This document shows positions 1,769-61,650 of a DNA stretch of 64,000 nucleotides, piece after piece (position 1 is the first letter of the stretch; the number at the start of each line of letters is the position of its first letter). The stretch is from Carcharhinus longimanus (taxonomy: Eukaryota). The notes beneath the pieces were generated by a model. The model did no database searches and had not been told where the DNA came from. It was given only the letters and a program-made list of their open reading frames with translations. Both the position numbers and the translations under genes were made by a program. The stretch is taken from the NCBI GenBank assembly GCA_030264375.1, contig JASCQW010000130.1:13300281-13364280 (forward strand), written 5' to 3'.

Positions 1769-2378
1769 TTAGTTCACATTCTACATATGATTACATAGTT
1801 ACAAAGCATTTCAGTCATTCTTTTGCGCACGAGGATCTATATGGGAACCAAGACCAAAGGTGGTCCTGTTGTCCCACCTCACCAGAGTAACACGCCTTAC
1901 TTGTGACTTAGCAGGCACCTAATCAGGGCTTGTGGCCTGAAGCGCTTTAGCTCAGGAAAATGTGTAGAAATGGAGGCAGAAGACCTGACTTTATGGGGAT
2001 AGGTGAAATGGAGGTTTTGGGACAGGGGCAGAAGGTCAGGTGAAGGTACAGACCTCTGAGATGGAAATAATTTGGAACCTGGTAGAGAAAAATTGAGCAA
2101 ATTGTATGGGGGGAAGTCAGGAACTTAGGGGCAGAAGCCTGTAACTCAGGGTGAAGGGCGATGAGCATGGCGTAGGAGCGGGGGAAGGGGGGGTAGAAGG
2201 TCTCAAGCTGGGAACTTGGGAGGAACGAGAAAGACCTGGAACTCGGCAGTTGGAGACAGTCTGGAAATTGGGCAGAGGAAGGTCAAGAACTGTTGGGCGT
2301 AGGGAAAGAAAATATTCCAGGTCTAAGCAGGAGAAGGGGAAGTTGGATGAGAGGGAGAAAGTGATTCAGCTGGAAGGT

Positions 2379-2690
2379 GGGGCAACACACAGTGGCACAG
2401 TGGTTAGCACTGCTACCTCACAACGCCAGGGACCCGGGTTCAATTCCCAGCTTGGGTCACTGTCTGTGCAGAGTCTGCACATTCTCCCCATGTCTGTATG
2501 GGTTTCCTCTGCATGGTCCATTTCCTTCCACAGTCTGAATGATGTGCTGATTAGGTGCATTGGCCTTGTTAAATTCTCACTCAGTTACCCAAACATAAGC
2601 CAAACATATGGCGACTAGGGGTAAACAATAATTTCATTGCATCATTAATGTAAGCCTACTTGCGATACTAATAAATAAACTTAAACTTAA
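2379..2690 (+). mobile_element. tRNA-derived V-SINE/HE1-like SINE (ataaataaactt tail subfamily)
   Basis: A box tggcacagtggttagc, B box ggttcaattccc, central ttccacagtctgaatgatgtgc, tail gtaagcctacttg..actaataaataaacttaaac. Confidence 0.9.
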
Positions 2691-2909
2691 AGATGTGATC
2701 CCTGTTCTCCCCTGCTTTGTTACACATGGATCACGTTCTCCACCCAAACATTATCTCCACCCCTATACATCAATGTCATGTTACCATGTCCTCCAGTTCC
2801 TCCTTTCCTGTTCCTGGACATTGATTGAGANNNNNNNNNNNNNNNNNNNNNNNNNNNNNNNNNNNNNNNNNNNNNNNNNNNNNNNNNNNNNNNNNNNNNN
2901 NNNNNNNNN

Positions 2910-2985
2910 GGCGGGGCAGGCTCGAAGGGCCAGATGGCCTACTCCTGCTCCTATTTCTTATGTTCTTATGTTCTTATGTTCTTAA
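2910..2985 (+). mobile_element. CR1 LINE 3' end
   Basis: ggcctactcctgctcctat followed by the (ttcttatg)n octamer tail typical of CR1. Confidence 0.8.
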
Positions 2986-3029
2986 AACACTGACCAAGTC
3001 AGGGTGCATTCTCAGGAAGAAAAAGAGTT

Positions 3030-3125
3030 AACATTTCACATTCTGATGAAAGGTCAACAACCTGAACCTTCTGCTTCTCCCTCTTTACATGCTGCATGTT
3101 TTCAGCATTTTACATTATGTCATTT
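3030..3125 (+). mobile_element. Penelope-like pLTR fragment with degenerate hammerhead core
   Basis: tctgatgaaaggtcaacaacctgaac followed by the gctgcatgttttcagcatttt motif seen in other copies. Confidence 0.55.
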
Positions 3126-3559
3126 AACTGTTGATTTGGAGACATTTGACCAGGTATGCCCTATGGTCCTTGGTCGCTATTCTGCTTTTCCAAGGTGACC
3201 CATAACATTAACAGGTAGATGGCATTATCATGGCTGCACTGCAACATTGTCAATCAGGGAGTCTCTGGCTATTCCTTATGTTAGTTGATACATTTGCGGT
3301 ATCCTCCACATTGAGCCACTTCCCTATTGCTGATGGATTGAATCAATGGAAATAATCTTGCATTTTTTTTTAAAGAGGAGTGTGCGATAAACTCACCAAC
3401 TGTTACTAGGGGATGGATAGTCAGCACAATGTCCGTGATGTGAAAACATTTATAGCCAATGATCCAGAATGGATATCTTGAAAAGTGTGTGTTAATAATT
3501 GAAAGTTACAACGGATACATGAATGGTAAATTATGTTTAGCTTGTTCAAGTTCTTCGAT

Positions 3560-4640
3560 GGCACAATGGAGAGAATAGATCAGCATAGTGCAGTTGGTGT
3601 TGTGAATGTGGACTTTGAAAACGAGTTTGGTAAACACCACAAAGTAGATGGTTAGCAAAATTAAATCCTGCCAAGGTATTAACAAGTTGCATAAATGCAA
3701 AATTGGCTAAGGGACAGAAGTGGAGAGTAGCAGCGAATAACTGTTTTTAAAGGCATAATTGCAGAGTTTGTTAGTGACGCAAAACCCATAAATGTAGTAA
3801 GTTGTGAGGAAGAAAAGAGAGTTAGTAGACAGACTGGTGAAATGGGCTGAAAAAGTGCAGATAAAATTTAATGCTCAGAAATATGAAGTGATTAGTTCTC
3901 GAAATGAAGACGGTAAGGAAGATAAGAGAGTGTGAAGGGGGAAAACACAAGGAAAGGAGCAGGATAATGTGACACTTGGCAGACAGTGCAAAAAATAATA
4001 AGCCCCGACACGTAGCAGAGAGTTGGACTAAGAGCAGAATATATCTGTATAAGGAAATGGCTAGTGCAGCTTCAGTAATTCAATCGCAGGACCATGAAAG
4101 AGAGCAGTCAGCGATTACCTAGGTATAAAGATTCTCTTTATTGTTCCAGGCAACCATGCAATATGACTCACAAGAGGAAGCATAGGGCAAGGACAGTGGA
4201 CAGATAGGCCTTAAAAATAACACAGAAGTAGAAGTCCTGATAAAACCTCAGGAGACAGACAAACCACAGAGATTGTGAGGCCCAGGAATCACAAAATACA
4301 AGAACATGACCTAAGTTTGCAGTACGGAGAAAAGGGAAGGATTGATTCTTGATTGACGCATGGTTTATTCTCAAGTATTGTTGCATGTAACCATTGTTAC
4401 ACAAAAGTGTGTAAATGCGTTTCTTTGAACTATAATCGGCAGAGTGTTTCTGAGCTTGACTTGGAAAGGCCTCTCCTGCAAGCATGTGGTATAAGCTTGA
4501 ATAAATTCACCTTGCTACTTTCCACTTAGCTCTAAAGGCTCAATCTGTTAAGGATCCTCCATCAATAAGAAGGATGAAGAGAAGAAATATAAACCAAATG
4601 ATGCAATAGTAAAAGGGAGGTGCCAGAACTGAGTGACCAT
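3560..4640 (+). mobile_element. CR1 LINE RT fragments interrupted by a solo LTR
   Basis: Degraded gtggactttgaaaa..tttggtaa (VDFxKAFD-like) and aaatgggctgaaaaagtgcagataaaatttaatg; CR1-like sequence resumes near 4575. Confidence 0.6.
3931..4566 (+). mobile_element. Solo LTR (ERV/LTR-retrotransposon-like)
   Basis: Starts TGTGAAGGGG, has TATA-like tataat near 4431 and AATAAA near 4500, ends near ..ccatCA. Layout resembles the LTR at 22686. Confidence 0.55.
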
Positions 4641-6475
4641 TGGTGTATTATCCAAGTCTTTGAACTTCAATCCTGATCCAATGAGGAGCGTGGAAGAGAA
4701 TGTCAGGAACAGCATTGGGTGAACCTGTAAATGAGATACCAATCTGAACTAGTGGTTACTGTACAGTACTACATGAGTGCTGAAGCATTGAATTTGCTGG
4801 ACAGCAAGAGGCCTTTCAGCCTCACACACCTATGCCAGCTCTTTGAAAAACCTGTCCAATTTGGCTGCACTCAATGCTGACATGCATGTGGTATTATACC
4901 TCTTTAATCCGTGACATCATTGCAAACAATGGAGGTCAGAACACCACTCATTCCCCAGTGTAAGACTTATCTTCTCCACTTAGCTTCTTATTTTCTTTTT
5001 GGATTTTGGAGCGAGACAGGGCTGTTTTGTTCAGAACAAACACTGTACCCACTTCTGACTAGGTAATTTCCTTTAGTTCAATGTTCTCTACGGCAGGCAT
5101 CCATTTCAAACAAGTGAGCATGTATATGGAGACCTCAAACTCCCTTTGACATGCCATTGAGCAGATTTTCACGTTGCCGTTTCTGAAGCTACTGAAACAC
5201 CTGCACCAGCCACAAGGATTAAAAATGGGTTGGGAAATTGGCTGGTTCCCTTCTGGCGATGTGATCCTTCTCATCCAATTTTTCTCAATGCTCTGTGAAC
5301 CGCCTGATTCAATATGCCCAAGTTTGGAACACACAAAAACTGCACCAATTTCTTAAAAAAAAATACTAAGTATGTTTCACCTAAGCTCAAATTCTGCACT
5401 GGATTTCTGTGCAAGTGTGGATGCTGGTGGCCATCTTGTGTTGACGGATTAAGTTGTCCAATTTATTCCCAGAGCTTAGTTTTTTTCCCCATAATCCTGC
5501 ATGTAAGTCCTCTTGATGCCCATGTACACCCACACTGGCACCCCAGACATATATGTGAGGACCTTGCACACAGCACGCACATACATGCACATCTCACAAA
5601 TACATACTGTAAGTACAGGGGCATCCGCACAGAAATGCACACGTACCCCACTCACATCTGGATGCCCCACATACCTATGCCTCCTGTACACGTGCAATTT
5701 TGCACACACTGATTGATTTAAATCTTTACCACGCTGCTGCCACATTAATACCTCTGAAATCCAAAGGCCATTGAATACTTGTATTTATTGTTTTCCATTT
5801 CCTATTCTAGTGAATGTGCTGGGGTAAAATTGGAACCCTAACCTTGTTCTCTTCATTCTGAATTGATTTTTTTTATCACATACAGAAGGGAGTTAAAAAA
5901 AATTCAAATCTCAAAAGAAATAACTAACCCAATAATTAAAGTATAGAGTCTTTCATCTCATCTGCCAAGGACGGCTATAATTGCAATTGCAGGATATTAG
6001 ATAACAGTGGATCTTCATAAAGCTAACTACAGCTCCACTTTGTGCATTCTACCATATCACTGTTCTCACATGATTTGCATCTTCCTCAGTTTTGCTGTTC
6101 AGTCGCTATGAGCTCCAAAGGTTGCTTGCCTCTTGACAATTGCAGGCTCAAATTACAAATTCCAGACACGTAGTTGTCCTGTCCACTAGTCAGAATTCTC
6201 AACCAAGTCACTTGTTGTAAATAAACATGAGCATGTTTCTGAGTGATGTGCCTGTCATAGTTGAATAGCTGAAAATGAGTGAAAGACATGGGAGTGAGCT
6301 TTGCTGCAGTGCTAAGTGTGTGAGGGTGAAATGAAGCTATGAGTGTGACATTTAATTGTGGTTGATAGATGAGTGAAGGAAGAATGCTGAATGGAACTGT
6401 GTGAGGCTAGTGCTTTATTTGCAAGGATGTGTAATTTGAAGAAGTATTCACTGACCATGAGTACTCATGTGAGGT

Positions 6476-7360: not shown

Positions 7361-7690
7361 AATGAAAACAGAAAATGAAATAAAAATTCAGCACGTCTGG
7401 CAACATCTGTGGAGAGAAAACAAAAACACCATTTCAAGTCCTTATGACTTGGATTTGAAACATTGGATGAGATTTTACAGCCTCACTTGTCCCAAAATCC
7501 CACCCAAGGTCAACCAACCTTCCCATGGTTTGCCCCTTGCCCGCTCCAATTCCCATGGAGGGTGGGACGGTAAAATTCCAGCCATTAACTCTGCTTTCTC
7601 TGTCCATAGATGCTGCCACACCTGCTCAATTCTTACATTTTCTGTTTTTATTTTAGAGTTCCAGCATCCTTAGTGTTTTGTTTTATTTTA
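7361..7690. mobile_element. Inverted pair of Penelope-like pLTR fragments
   Basis: cagcacgtctggcaacatctgtggagag (minus) and ctctgtccatagatgctgccacacctgctc (plus) are reverse complements of one family. Confidence 0.7.
7465..7583. mobile_element. PIF/Harbinger-type MITE
   Basis: Imperfect TIRs ggatgagattttac / gtaaaattccagcc; 3-bp TSD att at 7462-7464 and 7584-7586. Confidence 0.75.
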
Positions 7691-7967
7691 ATGTTCTGGG
7701 GATAAAGGTTCAGATCTGACCACAGCAGCTGGTGGAATATAAGTTCAATTAATAACCATGAATTAAAAAGCTAGCCTCAGTAATGGTGACAATGAAACAA
7801 GCCATTGTCAAATGTAAAAACACATCTGACTCACTACTGTCCTTTAAGGAAGGAAATCTACCATCCTTGCCCAGTCTGGCCTAAATGTGACTCCAGACCC
7901 ATAGCAATGTGGTTGACTTTTAACTACCTTCTGGAATGGTCCAGCAAGCACTCAGGTCAAGGGAATT

Positions 7968-8190
7968 GGCCTTTTGGCTAAGATCAAACATCAGATAAAG
8001 CCCAAGATGGGATGCAATGCCTTATCTTGTCAGCTTGGATCTTGTTTGTCTCTCTTGTTGGGACCATGAATTGGATTCAATTAGAGTTTCAATTTGGCTT
8101 TTGGAGCAAGCAGTGAATGGATTTGGGTTTGCCCGGTCCGTTCTGATCATTGGTTTTGTAACTTTAAGCGTGGAGTAAAAAAATAAAATA
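7968..8190 (+). mobile_element. U2 snRNA-derived retroposon (SINE-like), copy 1
   Basis: ggccttttggctaagatcaa matches the vertebrate U2 5' region exactly; the rest is collinear with the remainder of U2; ends in an A-rich tail aaaaaaataaaata. Confidence 0.85.
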
Positions 8191-8967
8191 GGTATGGATA
8201 ACAAATATTGGCCTTGTCAAATCCCATGAAAAAAAATTTAAAAAAGAGATGCAAGCTGATCTTAAGTAGCATGGGCTAGCTTTCAGTGGTGCCAGCCTCA
8301 AATAAATATGGTTCCCTTACTAGAAAGCAGAAATGCAACAGCACATTTAGCACTATGCTGCTCAGAACTATTATTAAAATCAGCAAGAACCTGACCTTTA
8401 TGTGCTGTCTGCATCACAATGAATAGGTACAGTTTAATGACACATCACAGTCCCCTTGTTCATTTCAGGAACTGCACCAATTGCGTCCCTCCACCTTGGG
8501 CTTTTCAGCCTAGAAAAGAAGGTGATTTTATCAAGATCCATAAGATAGTAAATGAGGTGGAACAGGCAAATGCTACTGTAAAGAAAAATACCAAAGTAAT
8601 ACATTGAAAAGAAGCTGATTTTAAGACAATAAGAATGGAACTAGGGAAATAACCCAGAAAATGTTACTGACAAAGAAGCAGAACAGGAGTGGGAAACATT
8701 TGAAACAGAGATTAATGAAATCAAGGAGAAATGCATTCTACTAAAGTACGCAAAAAAAGCAACAATGCCATACTAAGGATGAATTAAAAAATAGGGCAAC
8801 ATTAAAGCTAAATAAATGGCATTCAGTAAAAAAAGACAACAGTGTAGAGGACACAGAAAGGAAAAACCATAAATCAGGATAGGGAAAGTGCAACTGAGAG
8901 ATGCACACAATAAACTCACGTGTAATATCCACGAAATGACAGAAACATTAAATAATTACTTTGCCTC

Positions 8968-10714: not shown

Positions 10715-11750
10715 AGCCAAATATATTTGCTTTTCCAAAAAAGCCTTCGATAAGGTGGACACGTAGGCTGAGATTTTACTGCCACGCTCGCCCCAATGCT
10801 GGAAAATCCTGCCTGAGGTCAATGGACTTTTGCATGGTCTATGTCTCACCCACTATGATTCCCATGGCAAGCGGAATGGGAAAATTCTGCCTGTGTGGTG
10901 CCTGGTGCAAGTAGCAGAATGGATAGCAAGTGACTAATTAATACAGAGGAGGACTGCACTGAAATAAAGGAAAACATTAATTAACTTGCAACAAGGATAT
11001 GTAATTGGCAAATGAACTTCGATGTAGATAAGTGTGAAGTTGTACATTTTGGAAGGAAGAATAAGAAGACCACTTACTACCAAAAAAAAATGACTGTCTA
11101 AATGGGAAAGAGAAATCAGTGGTTCTGGGAGGACAGATAGGCAAATCACCAATGGTTAAAATGACTTTAAAAATGCAAACAGTGCCCTGAGGTTCATTTC
11201 TGATGGGGTAAAATTGAGATGTGGACAAATTGTGAAGAACTTGTATAGAGGTTTGGTGAGACCATGCCTCTGATCTCCATATTACAGAAGGAGCACACTG
11301 GCGAAGGTGCAATAATAATTTGCTAGAATGATAACTAGTTTATGTCTAGGAAGAAAAATTGAACGGCTGGGGCATTTTACCCTACAAAAGAGAAGCCTTT
11401 GGGGTAGCCTGATAGACGTTTTTTAAGATTATGAAAGAGTTTGATATGAGAGATATAGTGAAGATGTTTCCACTTGTGGGCAAGAACAGAACAAGGAGCC
11501 ATAAATATAAGATAGTCACAAATCAATCCATGAGGGAATTTGAAATAAACTCTTTACCCAGAAACTGATTTAGAAAACTGGTACTCATTACCTCAATGAG
11601 TAGTGGTGATGAATAGCATTGATGTGATTAGATGAGGGAGAGACAAAGAGCAATATATATTGCTGATCTAGATAAGAATGTTTTGGGGAGGTGTATGTGA
11701 AGCATGGACCTGATGGGCCAAGCGGCCTATGTCTGACCTGTAAATACTCA
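10715..11750 (+). mobile_element. Degraded CR1 LINE
   Basis: ttccaaaaaagccttcgataaggtg (FQKAFDKV), gataagtgtgaagttgtacattttggaagg (DKCEVVHFG) and a 3' UTR-like end. Confidence 0.8.
10766..10892. mobile_element. Harbinger-type MITE
   Basis: ggctgagattttac...gggaaaattctgcct; body similar to the 51785-51899 copy. Confidence 0.75.
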
Positions 11751-15083: not shown

Positions 15084-16050
15084 CAAACCCCATTCACATC
15101 AGTAATTTTAATAGTTTTAGAAGAAGGATGGAACACACATCACCATTCAGAGATAGGGAAAGAAGGTCGGATGAGACAGTAAAGGGAATGTTTTCTTTAA
15201 CCGTACTGACATTTTTCTTATCTACGCCTTTTAAAAATCTTGAATACTCCAATAAGAAAAATCCTGGGGTTTTTTGTGCAAGTATTCTCACTTGATCCAC
15301 GTAGACACTTTGAATATCATTCCCTATTTTGTCGTGAACATTTTGAAATGTTTTGTAATCTTATTTCAGACATTTTATGAATAAGGTATATTTTTGTAAA
15401 ACAAAATCCTCATGCAAAAAAAGCTGCAGCAAGAGTTTCAGGAAGGTTTGGTTTGAAGGTAAAAGACAGTATTTGGAGAAACAGGACAGAGAGAGGGCTC
15501 AGAGGTTTTCAGGTGTGGCGCTGGATATGAAATGGGATCGATATGGAAATGAGCAGAGATGCCAATCCAAATTCTCCAGTGTCACGTGGCCCCCTACTGC
15601 TGCCAGTGGGAACAGAGAGTGTGACACTCAGCTAAATCTCCATTCACAGCGGCAGGACCCGAGAATCCCAGCCGTGGGCAATGTCGGAGAATCCCATCCG
15701 CCATGTTTCCATTAGAAGGCCAGGAGATGTCATAATTTTCTGTCTTGTGGACTCACATAAATTTATCAAACCATGCCAAAATCAAATTGTGTGATGGGAA
15801 GGGTCATAAATGTCAATGAAATTGTGAGTCACACACAAACCCCATTCACATCAATGATGTTAATAATTTTAGGAGAGGGATTGGATGCATATCTCTATTC
15901 AGAGATTTGGAAAGAAGTTCAGATGAGACTGTAGAGGAAATTTTTTTTTAATCTGTACTTACATTTTCCTTGGCTATGCCTTTTAAAAACCTTGAATACT
16001 CCAATAAGAAAAGATCCTGTGTTTTCTCTGATGTAAGCATTCTCACTTTC
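15084..16050 (-). repeat. Two diverged copies of one ~215-bp CR1-like segment (15084-15295 and 15836-16050)
   Basis: Both begin caaacccattcacatca and share ccttttaaaaa..ttgaatactccaataagaaaa. Confidence 0.75.
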
Positions 16051-42345: not shown

Positions 42346-42707
42346 TGTGAGTCTGGGGGCTGTGGCGGGAGGGTGGGTTACGGGAATTGTGAGTTTCTGG
42401 GCTGTGGTGAGCAGAGTTCTTTAACATCTCCATCTGTTTTTGCCGTTCCTCAAAGCCACCCTCTCTGCAGATTGACGAAATGGCTTTTGCCATGAGACCA
42501 ATTGATCTTGCAGTTCTTTTGGTTGTTGCTGGAGCTGAGGAGGAGGAGCGGCAGGAAGAATTGCGGGCAGAGATGGCCCAGGCCTTCCCAGTCCAGGAGG
42601 AGAGGGAGACAGCCGGCAGAGGCTGTCATTTGCCCCAAGGGGGCGGGCAGGAGAAGGAGGGAGTGGGGACCCTGGCAGGTCTGCACATGGGTATCCTTTG
42701 AGCAACT

Positions 42708-43060
42708 ATATTGTAGGACCCTGCCAGAGCAGTCAAGGCACCTGAGCCACATTTTGAGGAGGCCTTGCAATCTGGGCTCCTCCTCAAAGACCTCCAGGAT
42801 ATCTGGACTCCTCCATATAAAACTGTCATGCACGCTGCCGGGGTATCTGGCACAGAGGTGCAGGATATTCAGCTGATGGTCACACACCAACTGCACATGT
42901 ATTGAAAGGAAGCCCTTTCTGTTGATGAATATTTTCACTGGGATCCTGATGGCGATGTGGCTGCAGTCTATAGTGCCCTGCACCTTTGGCATCCCCATAA
43001 TGGCTGCGAATCCTGCAGTCCACGCTTCCTGCTGGGCCTGGCCCAAGTCCAATTGGGGGG
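42708..43060 (-). pseudogene. Harbinger DDE transposase fragment (HARBI1-like)
   Basis: GFAAIMGMPKVQGTIDCSHIAI..FINRKGFLSIHVQLVCDHQLNILHLCARYPGSVHDSFI contains the GxIDCxH, NRKG and PGSxHD motifs. Confidence 0.95.
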
Positions 43061-43584
43061 CGGGGAGAAGGGGTCCGCTGCCACTCTGCCTGAGATCAAT
43101 GAGGGAAGGGGGTTCTGCTGCCACTTTACCTGAGATCACTGAGGAGGGAAGGGGGATCCCCTGCCACTCTGCCTGTGATCGCTGAGGGGGAAGGGTGGGT
43201 CTGCTGCCACACTGCCTGAGATCAGTATGGGTGGCGGAGGGGGGATAAAGGCGTCAGTAATGTTGTAAGGGTGGGGAAATGTCAGTGGGGGTCAGGGGGA
43301 AGCATTAGCCGGCCTGGGAGCAATGTGGCAGGGGAGCTGCATTCTATCACTTTTTTTCTGCGCATGCGCAGTCGGAGGCACCAATCGGAGCTGCAGGATT
43401 TTGGGCGCGTTAAGCCTCGTCCACACGCTTGTGCAGCACAATTCGGAATTGCTGATATTTGTTCAAGCAAAGTGCATATGGGGGTGCCTGAGAATGGGTC
43501 TAAAAGTCGGATCTGAAACAGTTTCAAGTCCGCCCAGCACTTAGAATCAAAATGGTAAAATAGGGCCCAATGTCTCATTCAGAA

Positions 43585-50962: not shown

Positions 50963-51575
50963 ATTTCTTATCATTGCTCATTCTGGCCAGCTGCAGACAG
51001 AATTTACCTGGATTAGCCATTAGTCATTGCGGGGGTGGGGAGACAATGGCATAGTGGTATTGTCAGCAGACTGGTAATCTAGAAACCAAGGGTAATGCCC
51101 CAGGTTCAAGCCCCCCCTCCCCCACAAGGGTAAGAAGACAGTGGCCTACTGGTCACTGGGCTAGTAATGCTCTGAGGCCTCAGTTCCCACATGGCAGCTA
51201 CTTTAGTTTAAATTCAACAAATAAATCTGGAATATAAAATTCTGGTCTGCTTCAATAACATTCAGGAGATATTCCTTTTTGGACACTCAACATGTGAAAT
51301 GATGAGGAACTCTGTCTTTTTAGAATCTTTGACTCAAGAAAAATGAAATTTTCAGAATATAGCAATAGAAATGGGCCATGAAGCCCTTAAACCTGCTCCA
51401 TCATTCAATTCGATCATTGTTGAATTATACCTCAAATCAGTTTATTCATTAGTTCCTTTTATTACCCTTTGCCACAAAATCAGTCTTGAAAGCTCTAATT
51501 GTCCCAGCGTTCACAACCTTTTTTTGAAATAAATGCAGAGTAAAACTGGGCAGCATTTTAAAAAATTCATTTAAA

Positions 51576-51927
51576 TTTATTTTAAACATTTTACTCCATT
51601 CTTAAAGTTACAAAGCCAATGCTCAGAATGGGCCAGGCAAGCCTGAATCCATTCCTTGCATGCTCCAAACACCCAATTCAAAATTCAATTGAATCCAATT
51701 CAAGGTTCCCACAAGAGAGACCAACAAGATCCAAGCTGACAAGAGAAGGCACTGTACCCCATCTTGGGCTTGATCTGATGCTTGGGGCAGGATTTTCCAG
51801 CCATGCTCACCCCAAGACGGGAAAATCCTGCCCGAGGTTAAAAGACCTTTGCACGATCTGCCCCACCCGTTATGATTCCCATGTCGGAAAATTCTGCCTT
51901 TGATCTTAGCCAAAAGGCTGAAACATG
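51576..51927 (-). mobile_element. U2 snRNA-derived retroposon (SINE-like), copy 2
   Basis: Reverse complement atgtttcagccttttggctaagatcaa-[MITE]-gcatcagatcaagcccaagatggg...ctttaagaatggagtaaaa is collinear with 7968-8190. Confidence 0.85.
51785..51899. mobile_element. Harbinger-type MITE inside the U2-derived element
   Basis: TIRs gggcaggattttcc / ggaaaattctgcct; 3-bp TSD ttg at 51782-51784 and 51900-51902; copy 1 shows the empty site. Confidence 0.9.
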
Positions 51928-60829: not shown

Positions 60830-61260
60830 TTTCTCCCACATTGATTGAGAGTGAAGAAGACCTACTGCAAGCAATGCCGCCATCCTCAACTTCCTCCTCA
60901 TCCGAGAAGACCCAGCACTCAACCATCTCCTCCAGGTCTAGGTTGTCTCCCCTCTGCAGTGCCAGGTTGTGGAGAGCACAGCAGACCGTAACAATATAGG
61001 AGACTTTCTGGGATTTGTATTGTAGAGCACCCCCACTAACCGATCCAGGCACTGGAAACTCATTTTCAATAGTCCAATCACTGCTCCACTAACGTGTGTT
61101 GAAGTGTGAGACTCATTGCATCGAGTCTCCGCTGGTGTTTGTGGTCTCTGCTCAGGCGTCATCAGCCACCTTCTGAGTGGGTACCCATTGGCCCTGAGGA
61201 ACCATCCCTCAAAGAGGGTGCCCTGCAGATGAGGGGCAGGCTGGGCCCAAAGCTGTTGCA
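60830..61260 (-). pseudogene. Harbinger transposase C-terminal relic
   Basis: GYPLRRWLMTP..PQTPAETRCNESH..IGLLKMSFQCLD, GGALQY and CCALHNLALQRG motifs. Confidence 0.92.
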
Positions 61261-61264
61261 GGAC

Positions 61265-61650
61265 CAGCACCATGGCTACTGGGAGACATTATCGGTAAAG
61301 AATCTTTCTCTTCTCTGAACAGCTCAAGTGCTCTCTCCTCAAAGGGAGTGAGCTTCTGAGAACTGGTAGGAGCTCTCAACGCGCCCATTCATGAGTATTA
61401 TGGTGGAACTTTTTCTGTAATGAGACAGATGAGGAGAATAGGTGGGATTCTTGCCTATTCAGATGGTGATGAGGTGTGTTATGCTTGGACGTCGATGTGT
61501 TTGTGGACACAAGACATTCTGCCTCTGCCTCACACCATCAGGAGTCTGGTCAGGGCTCCCTCTGAGAAACATAGTGTTCGCTTCCTTGAAGCCTTCCCTC
61601 AAATGGATCTGGAATAAGTGCTGGGGAGGCATTTAGATAGAGCTCCCTAC
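61265..61650 (-). pseudogene. Second, inverted Harbinger Myb/SANT-like gene relic
   Basis: Reverse complement ctccccagcacttattcca matches 59726-59744; encodes RKRTLCFSEGALTRL..GVRQRQNVL and LTPFEERALEL. Confidence 0.8.

Follow-up and report, generated by a model that had tools for sequence, protein, structure and literature searches.

The element at positions 7966-8189 of the forward strand of the window, by which we mean the whole 64-kb stretch of shark DNA analysed here, is confirmed as one copy of a dispersed, ~215-nt, non-coding retroposon family (family A) whose sequence is built on U2 snRNA. Family A arose by retroposition from a succession of remodelled masters, and its sister family, family B, shares an insertion site in U2 genes with a LINE. 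The explanation we favour, with fair confidence, is that family A is an apparently extinct U2-derived shark retroposon that was copied by a Keno-like Tx1 LINE and whose masters were probably transcribed from the upstream promoter of a U2 gene. Its two parts differ in strength: judged from the sequences, mobilisation of family A by Tx1 machinery is likely, and promoter borrowing from U2 genes is a suggestion we rate slightly short of even.

The window copies and their setting

A first-pass annotation, made from the letters of the window alone, had described copy 1 as opening with an exact U2 20-mer, and this 20-mer does equal nt 11-30 of the best U2 gene in the same genome (locus L031), which served as our reference U2 (Table 1). 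Its placement of the stem II region (8026-8044), a gtctc/gggac pair (8048-8052 and 8060-8064), the Sm-site region (8095-8108) and the tail (8177-8189) also held, as did the loss of the branch-point motif, GTAGTA being missing from both window copies. Of the 3' stems that it took to be kept, stem III survives and stem IV is broken. No clear target-site duplication flanks copy 1. The second copy, reported in the opposite orientation with different flanks, is real: it lies on the minus strand (51918-51589), is 85% identical to copy 1 over 196 nt, has unrelated flanks, and is split just after GATCAA by a 113-bp insert with 13-bp inverted ends that had gone unmentioned. Decayed Harbinger-like transposase fragments, recognised by eye, lie elsewhere in the window (42450-43253 and 60938-61288), and the insert may be a MITE related to them. 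Neither window copy is recognised by the Rfam U2 model: the suggested cmsearch with RF00004 gave as its best result in the window a 16-nt match of 11.3 bits (E 6.4), against a bar of >46 bits, and an Rfam scan of the window returned no family at the gathering cut-off.

Table 1. Features of the two family A copies and of their surroundings in the window.
Feature	Position	Strand	Basis
Body of copy 1 of family A (young subfamily), derived from U2 and truncated 5' at ~U2 nt 9	7966-8176	+	Alignment; 92.9% identity to 30-copy majority
U2 nt 11-30, stem I head, equal to the genome's own U2	7968-7987	+	Match to L031
24-nt insert: a further two repeats, diverged, of the 12-mer at U2 nt 25-36	7988-8011	+	Three recognisable 12-mer units in older copies; 2-unit forms occur
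What remains of U2 stem IIa (degraded) and of stem IIb (still pairing)	8026-8064	+	Alignment, folding
Second insert (~18 nt, repeats of Sm-site region) and altered Sm site	8071-8108	+	Alignment, folding
Stem III remnant and 3' end from U2 ~nt 150-185, loop IV deleted	8103-8176	+	Older copies against U2
AGTAAA hexamer and A-rich tail	8174-8189	+	Column profile of 98 copies
Abundant host repeat, insertion site of copy 1; resumes at ~8190-8245	7689-7965		Self-BLAST; contigs skipping 7948-8189
Second family A copy, with head at 51918-51899, body at 51784-51589 and tail as far as ~51575	51575-51918	-	Self-BLAST, alignment
113-bp MITE-like insertion within copy 2, 13-bp terminal inverted repeats	51786-51898		Related sequence at 10772-10895

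Copy number, dispersal and age of family A

The genome is a shark's and not a crocodilian's: a haemoglobin alpha exon matches PDB chain 1gcv_A at 58 of 70 positions (128 bits) and reaches 122 bits with 3mkb_A, vs at most 60 bits per domain for every other entry, and the beta exon likewise places these entries at the top; the two entries come from a houndshark and the mako, and 1cg5 from a stingray. Nucleotide searches of the genome (a 2.68-Gb, short-read-style assembly in which the U2 genes themselves lie on small contigs) returned 3,812 and 4,284 first-look candidates, counts that are biased upwards and include family B; the best 40 candidates of each search showed 85-91% identity, the self match apart. 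The copy count that the first-pass annotation had proposed as a check thus goes well past two: exact matches to two motifs 5-45 nt apart numbered 240 + 96 = 336, with 0 in the backwards control, and, since both motifs are intact in only 13 of the 42 best copies examined, they set a floor of ~1,100 family A copies. Per-site identities of 0.90-0.92 raise the estimate to 2,700-4,700, and we place the family at ~1,100 copies at least and likely at 2,000-5,000.

From a sample of 125 loci, left after dropping 19 duplicate loci, 98 are near full length. The shared insertions extend beyond the two window copies, 30 of the 30 top copies being alike in their internal changes and their ends while lying in unrelated flanks. 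Both A-tails and target-site duplications (8-14 bp), for which a search had been advised, were found among the 98 copies: a duplication score of at least 8 was reached by 25 of them vs 3.3% of 1,500 mismatched pairs, and a score of at least 10 by 11 vs 0.1% of mismatched pairs. No common target motif at the duplications of these copies was obvious by eye, nor was a target preference detected, flank sharing amounting to 30/98 vs 31/98 in control DNA 1 kb away, and the Mariner-N4-like preference that is a trait of crocodilian SINEU was not seen in family A. Two family A copies 1.2 kb apart (L137/L138, G000:C32:19138255-19142526) are inverted with partly shared flanks, a local inverted duplication.

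The 98 copies fall into an older subfamily (21 copies, 87% identical to their own majority), which is nearer to U2, and a younger one (77 copies, 90% to their own majority, maximum 95.4%). With 2-unit and 3-unit heads and an older, more U2-like subfamily, the family is the product of several successive masters; the earlier proposal of one remodelled U2-derived master holds as to retroposition, as opposed to independent pseudogenes, and needs refining as to a single source. A search for a master locus with a PSE and a 3' box found none, and a near-majority query retrieved no young copy or master, its best non-self matches being 90-91% identical among the 40 of 4,284 candidates that were scored. 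Family A is apparently extinct in this genome.

Part of the element is present in 21 sequencing runs from 10 studies, of which 4 runs were examined. One contig of X19 (organism G) runs from 7910 to 8900, crossing the element and reaching unique flank, and differs from the window by 67 letters plus 31 gap letters; the same insertion is thus shared with another organism at ~93% identity and predates a split of ~7% divergence. For organism D, 1,922 Mb of raw reads gave a depth of 206-2,028 per bin over the element vs 0-2.4 over the unique flank, suggesting roughly a thousand copies or more there. Joints matching the internal repeat of family B were seen in X22, X1 and X19; X1, whose flanks are identical to those of the window, was left out of the count of independent sources. 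X20, whose nature as RNA is a guess, holds pieces of copies, mostly within longer contigs and together with host repeats.

Anatomy relative to U2

The 30-copy majority scores 112 against U2, vs 24 ± 6 in 500 shuffles (maximum 46.5), in agreement with the collinearity first proposed, and still scores 81 vs 21 ± 5 (maximum 43.5) once its head is removed. The family follows the U2 of its own genome from nt 1 to ~185, with 30 of 31 positions identical over the head (U2 1-31) in the young majority, body segments at 21/34, 21/29, 15/18 and 31/47, and most of the body 60-72% identical. The two insertions that had been noticed in both window copies are indeed common to them, with the correction that they are tandem repeats of U2's own sequence and not foreign DNA: as read from the older subfamily, the first adds U2 nt 25-36 twice more and the second repeats the Sm-site region. 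The 3' end, also in the older subfamily, is U2 ~nt 150-185 minus 8 nt of loop IV. L277, a two-unit copy, has U2 nt 39-55 still intact. According to the 98-copy column profile, the family ends in GGAGT, A5, T5 and A5-6, and a hexamer resembling a poly(A) signal (AGTAAA, AATAAA or ATTAAA) stands at the end of 54 of the 98 copies.

Several other U2 loci of the genome are of note. L046-L048 carry, on three small contigs, a U2 variant without nt ~160-191 within a larger repeated unit; derivation of the family A 3' end from the downstream flank of the U2 gene, considered for these variant loci, was dropped because older copies align to U2 nt ~168-185, minus loop IV. L032:490-920 contains a U2 gene ~130 nt downstream of an apparent U5 gene (by eye), with a flanking 15-nt satellite. 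L033, a small AT-rich contig with a divergent U2 and the start of a histone H3 gene, may be a contaminant. Dispersed full-length U2 retrocopies with ~38 nt of the gene's 3' flank (L035-L039, L041-L044, L049) have duplications and no poly(A) tail, and were probably reverse-transcribed from 3'-extended pre-U2.

The existence of such ordinary retrocopies with duplications (L035-L049), and the failure of Rfam to score the element, are what could be said for family A being a set of independent U2 processed pseudogenes or a chance similarity. Set against an alignment far above shuffles and non-U2 changes common to all copies, that reading has a negligible probability; independent U2 pseudogenes are ruled out by the shared diagnostic changes.

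More thought is due to the conserved pairing. In stems I, IIb and III, 17 of 18 pairs persist in the old majority and 16 of 18 in the young one despite ~28% divergence, the two majorities fold with z of -2.9 and -3.9 and one real copy with z -2.8, and the young majority has an Sm-like GATTTTGA in its duplicated unit, all of which might suggest that a functional variant U2 snRNA gene served as master, its product an snRNP and perhaps regulatory, with the copies as its processed pseudogenes. Yet the features of a U2 snRNA gene, namely the GUAGUA branch-point motif, stem IIa, the Sm site and stem-loop IV, are not retained by family A: in the majorities GTAGTA is absent, stem IIa decayed and stem-loop IV broken, and the old majority lacks an Sm consensus. 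Moreover, most kept pairs are G-U wobbles, which transitions give by chance, no near-majority locus emerged among the 40 of 4,284 candidates scored, the copy number is far above the 48 scored U2 matches, and the body keeps rearranging, as in family B. A functional variant gene as master is accordingly improbable, and family A RNA would not have functioned as a splicing U2.

Transcription as a conventional Pol III SINE, from A- and B-box-like motifs in the U2 head and the repeated 12-mer, is less probable still in our estimation. The head and second unit do resemble the A- and B-box consensus by eye, but a mere 18 nt separates the motifs, and the young majority has, at nt 15, 129 and 141, T4-T5 runs of the kind that terminates vertebrate Pol III. 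Pol III is unlikely because of these internal runs; family A thus lacks the classical SINE arrangement of A and B boxes at workable spacing free of an internal terminator, and the 64-kb window holds no tRNA gene.

Sister family B

The U2 17-mer that ends at nt 36 is present 1,326 times, and ~94 of the 100 occurrences listed continue, by eye, into the body of family B. In this ~300-nt family U2 1-40 is followed by a 70-nt piece, then by a second U2-like head, a doubled family A segment and a shortened end; the family is represented by loci L165-L206 and L222-L251 and by at least 1,200 copies, many of them broken by assembly gaps. Young copies are 95.5% identical to their majority (n = 30), and family B is younger than family A. 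In old family B copies the 70-nt piece is identical to U4 nt 21-47 at 22 of 27 positions, a level reached by 2 of 1,000 shuffles and seen in 8 of 12 testable copies; the U4 similarity of the young body on its own is not significant (30/1,000 shuffles). Family B also carries a U4 Sm-like stretch, and a U4-derived segment is, on these alignments, probable. AATAAA lies 14 nt ahead of the A-tail in old copies. Two old copies (L242, L246) have a different, non-U2 5' head before the U4-like piece, and L274 is a copy with U2 14-58 in front and U2 39-45 behind its tail.

The U2 nt 39 site and Tx1-type LINEs

Among 40 genome matches to U2 nt 39-55, 5 have an A-run directly before nt 39. The junctions are family B ends at L279 and L286 (both with their 5' ends hidden by assembly gaps), LINE ends at L262 and L278, and a bare A-run within U2 at L261. 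Family B and a Tx1-type LINE thus share U2 nt 39, and U2 was found as the 5' or 3' flank of family A in 0 of 98 copies. In the accessible part of PMC4640811, U2 nt 39 is the published 3' junction of Utopia, stated to be identical to that of Keno.

The 3' end of the LINE reads GAATAAAGTATATTTTTG-A(n), and a 3' end built on this Tx1/L1-type pattern also occurs in the window (15372-15400). U2-headed elements closed by the end of the U2-site LINE, their heads given as U2 1-56, occur at L266, where U2(13-56) precedes it and the element has a 13-bp duplication at a non-U2 site, and at L284. At L263 a U2 head is joined to an ORF1 with ZCCHC3-type RNA-binding domains and a zinc knuckle, as expected for Tx1; L261 contains a zf-RVT fragment, and Pfam gave no match for its RT-side fragment. 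From domain content and insertion site, as opposed to a reverse-transcriptase tree, the U2-site LINE is likely Tx1/Keno-like. L263:546-1560 also shows a second head, like the repeated unit of family A, joined to a LINE 5' UTR. At L261/L262 (G000:C32:64138343-64141809) both of two adjoining U2 genes are interrupted at nt 38/39 and have LINE fragments to either side; the locus is a probable Keno-invaded U2 array.

A possible route through U2 genes

The following course of events could account for family A. Stem-loop IV would have been lost from a copy of a U2 gene, and this copy would have acquired an end of the form AATAAA/AGTAAA-T5-A(n), similar to the 3' end of Tx1, such that its Pol II transcript would become polyadenylated and a substrate for the Tx1 reverse transcriptase. 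The Tx1 enzyme would cut U2 genes at nt 38/39, so that insertions may gain a U2 promoter and head: new copies could land behind the U2 promoter, and a copy so placed would emerge with a fresh U2 head, promoter and head being both renewed. The likeness of the family A tail to the Tx1 end amounts to ~20 AT-rich bases only, and no upstream DNA beyond a common repeat was found to be common to A or B copies and 10 U2-gene-like loci. Extra U2 heads end at nt 52-58, and the family A repeat unit ends at nt 36.

The same retroposon and Tx1 partner might instead have relied on masters read through from arbitrary host promoters, with U2 heads added by template switching onto U2 snRNA (Kojima's model), as proposed for SINEU-2 in the available text of PMC4494074. 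An extra U2 5' piece on 4 of 61 family B heads, with 3' flanks that are not U2, fits this proposal, as do tailless U2 5' fragments ending at nt 57-62 that occur alone, and the search found no PSE flank in common. Free tailless U2 retrocopies end in the same region as the extra heads (several of 30 loci, with a search pattern that forces ends of at least 55), so that template switching explains heads without a U2 promoter. It does not predict, however, that family B copies and the ends of LINEs should lie precisely at U2 nt 39, and read-through would be expected to leave shared 5' extensions; none was seen, 104 of 125 loci starting within U2 nt 1-16 (19 at nt 1) in a sample biased to head-bearing copies. 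We regard read-through with template switching as unlikely, if worth keeping in mind, and prefer transcription from the U2 promoter. A wider proposal, which we advance tentatively, is that sharks may have hosted a long radiation of snRNA-built SINEs (U2-only family A, U2 + U4 family B) riding a Keno-like LINE into U2 genes for promoter and fresh head.

Relation to known elements and significance

With a U2-derived head, a non-coding length below 500 bp, an A-tail, a structure shared at high copy number and 8-14-bp target-site duplications (~10 bp being typical of SINEU), family A is best read as a SINEU that probably arose independently, SINEU-3 being compared by its description and independence being judged from structure and lineage. 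As far as the accessible text of PMC4494074 goes, crocodilian SINEU-3 (~1,600 copies, ~89% to consensus) resembles family A in being short, poly(A)-tailed and U2-only, with a shared internal rearrangement, oligo-T inside and an inferred Tx1 partner, and has an internal ~50-nt deletion, a 40-nt non-U2 3' end and 90% of its copies flanking Mariner-N4_AMi. Family A, unlike SINEU-3, retains U2 sequence as far as ~nt 185, has grown through tandem repeats, shows no transposon target and has a shark host. The first-pass view of an element U2-derived over its whole length stands as to derivation and falls as to novelty, since SINEU-3, on the portion of PMC4494074 available, is a precedent for a wholly U2-derived design. 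SINEU-1 and SINEU-2, as described in the same text, resemble family B in recurrent addition of a 5' snRNA head and partial duplication; in family B, by contrast, the added piece is U4-like and not U1, and copies lie at the U2 Keno site.

The U2-targeting non-LTR retrotransposons Keno (Tx1 clade) and Utopia have a 3' junction at nt 39, like the ends found here, and the 20-bp duplications of reptile Utopia match U2 39-58 before the LINE fragment in L261 (PMC4640811, accessible part); as autonomous LINEs they correspond to the proposed partner of family A and not to family A itself. Tx1-11_Crp is a U2-headed Tx1 LINE, like L263, L266 and L284, but is crocodilian and targets Mariner-N4 (PMC4494074, available text). 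Tailless or processed U2 pseudogenes, as presented in the accessible part of PMC5322556, share U2 sequence and target-site duplications with family A and differ in being independent canonical copies without shared remodelling.

The accessible text of PMC4494074 places SINEU in crocodilians only, with none outside, and leaves open how they are transcribed without an internal promoter, and those parts of PMC5381603, PMC5499810, PMC5786205, PMC7245038 and PMC8143547 that are available contain no mention of a shark SINEU. No snRNA-derived SINE from a cartilaginous fish was found in the open literature, a scope outside which lie subscription journals, Repbase Reports, Dfam, SINEBase and the supplements of shark genome papers; it is possible, if on balance doubtful, that a family A consensus has already been deposited in a repeat database.

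Since both the class and the U2-only design had been published, the novelty lies in the shark lineage and in a link to the Keno site that can be tested. The probably independent shark origin implies that snRNA-derived SINEs recur, and with the probable U4 segment a further RNA joins those exploited by SINEU-like elements. Families A and B add thousands of U2-like matches to shark snRNA annotation and are potential presence/absence markers for shark phylogeny. The occurrence of family B at the Keno site beside U2-headed Tx1 LINEs makes the promoter question testable in long-read shark genomes, and, if the wider proposal is true, riding U2 genes would be a general answer to how SINEU are transcribed.
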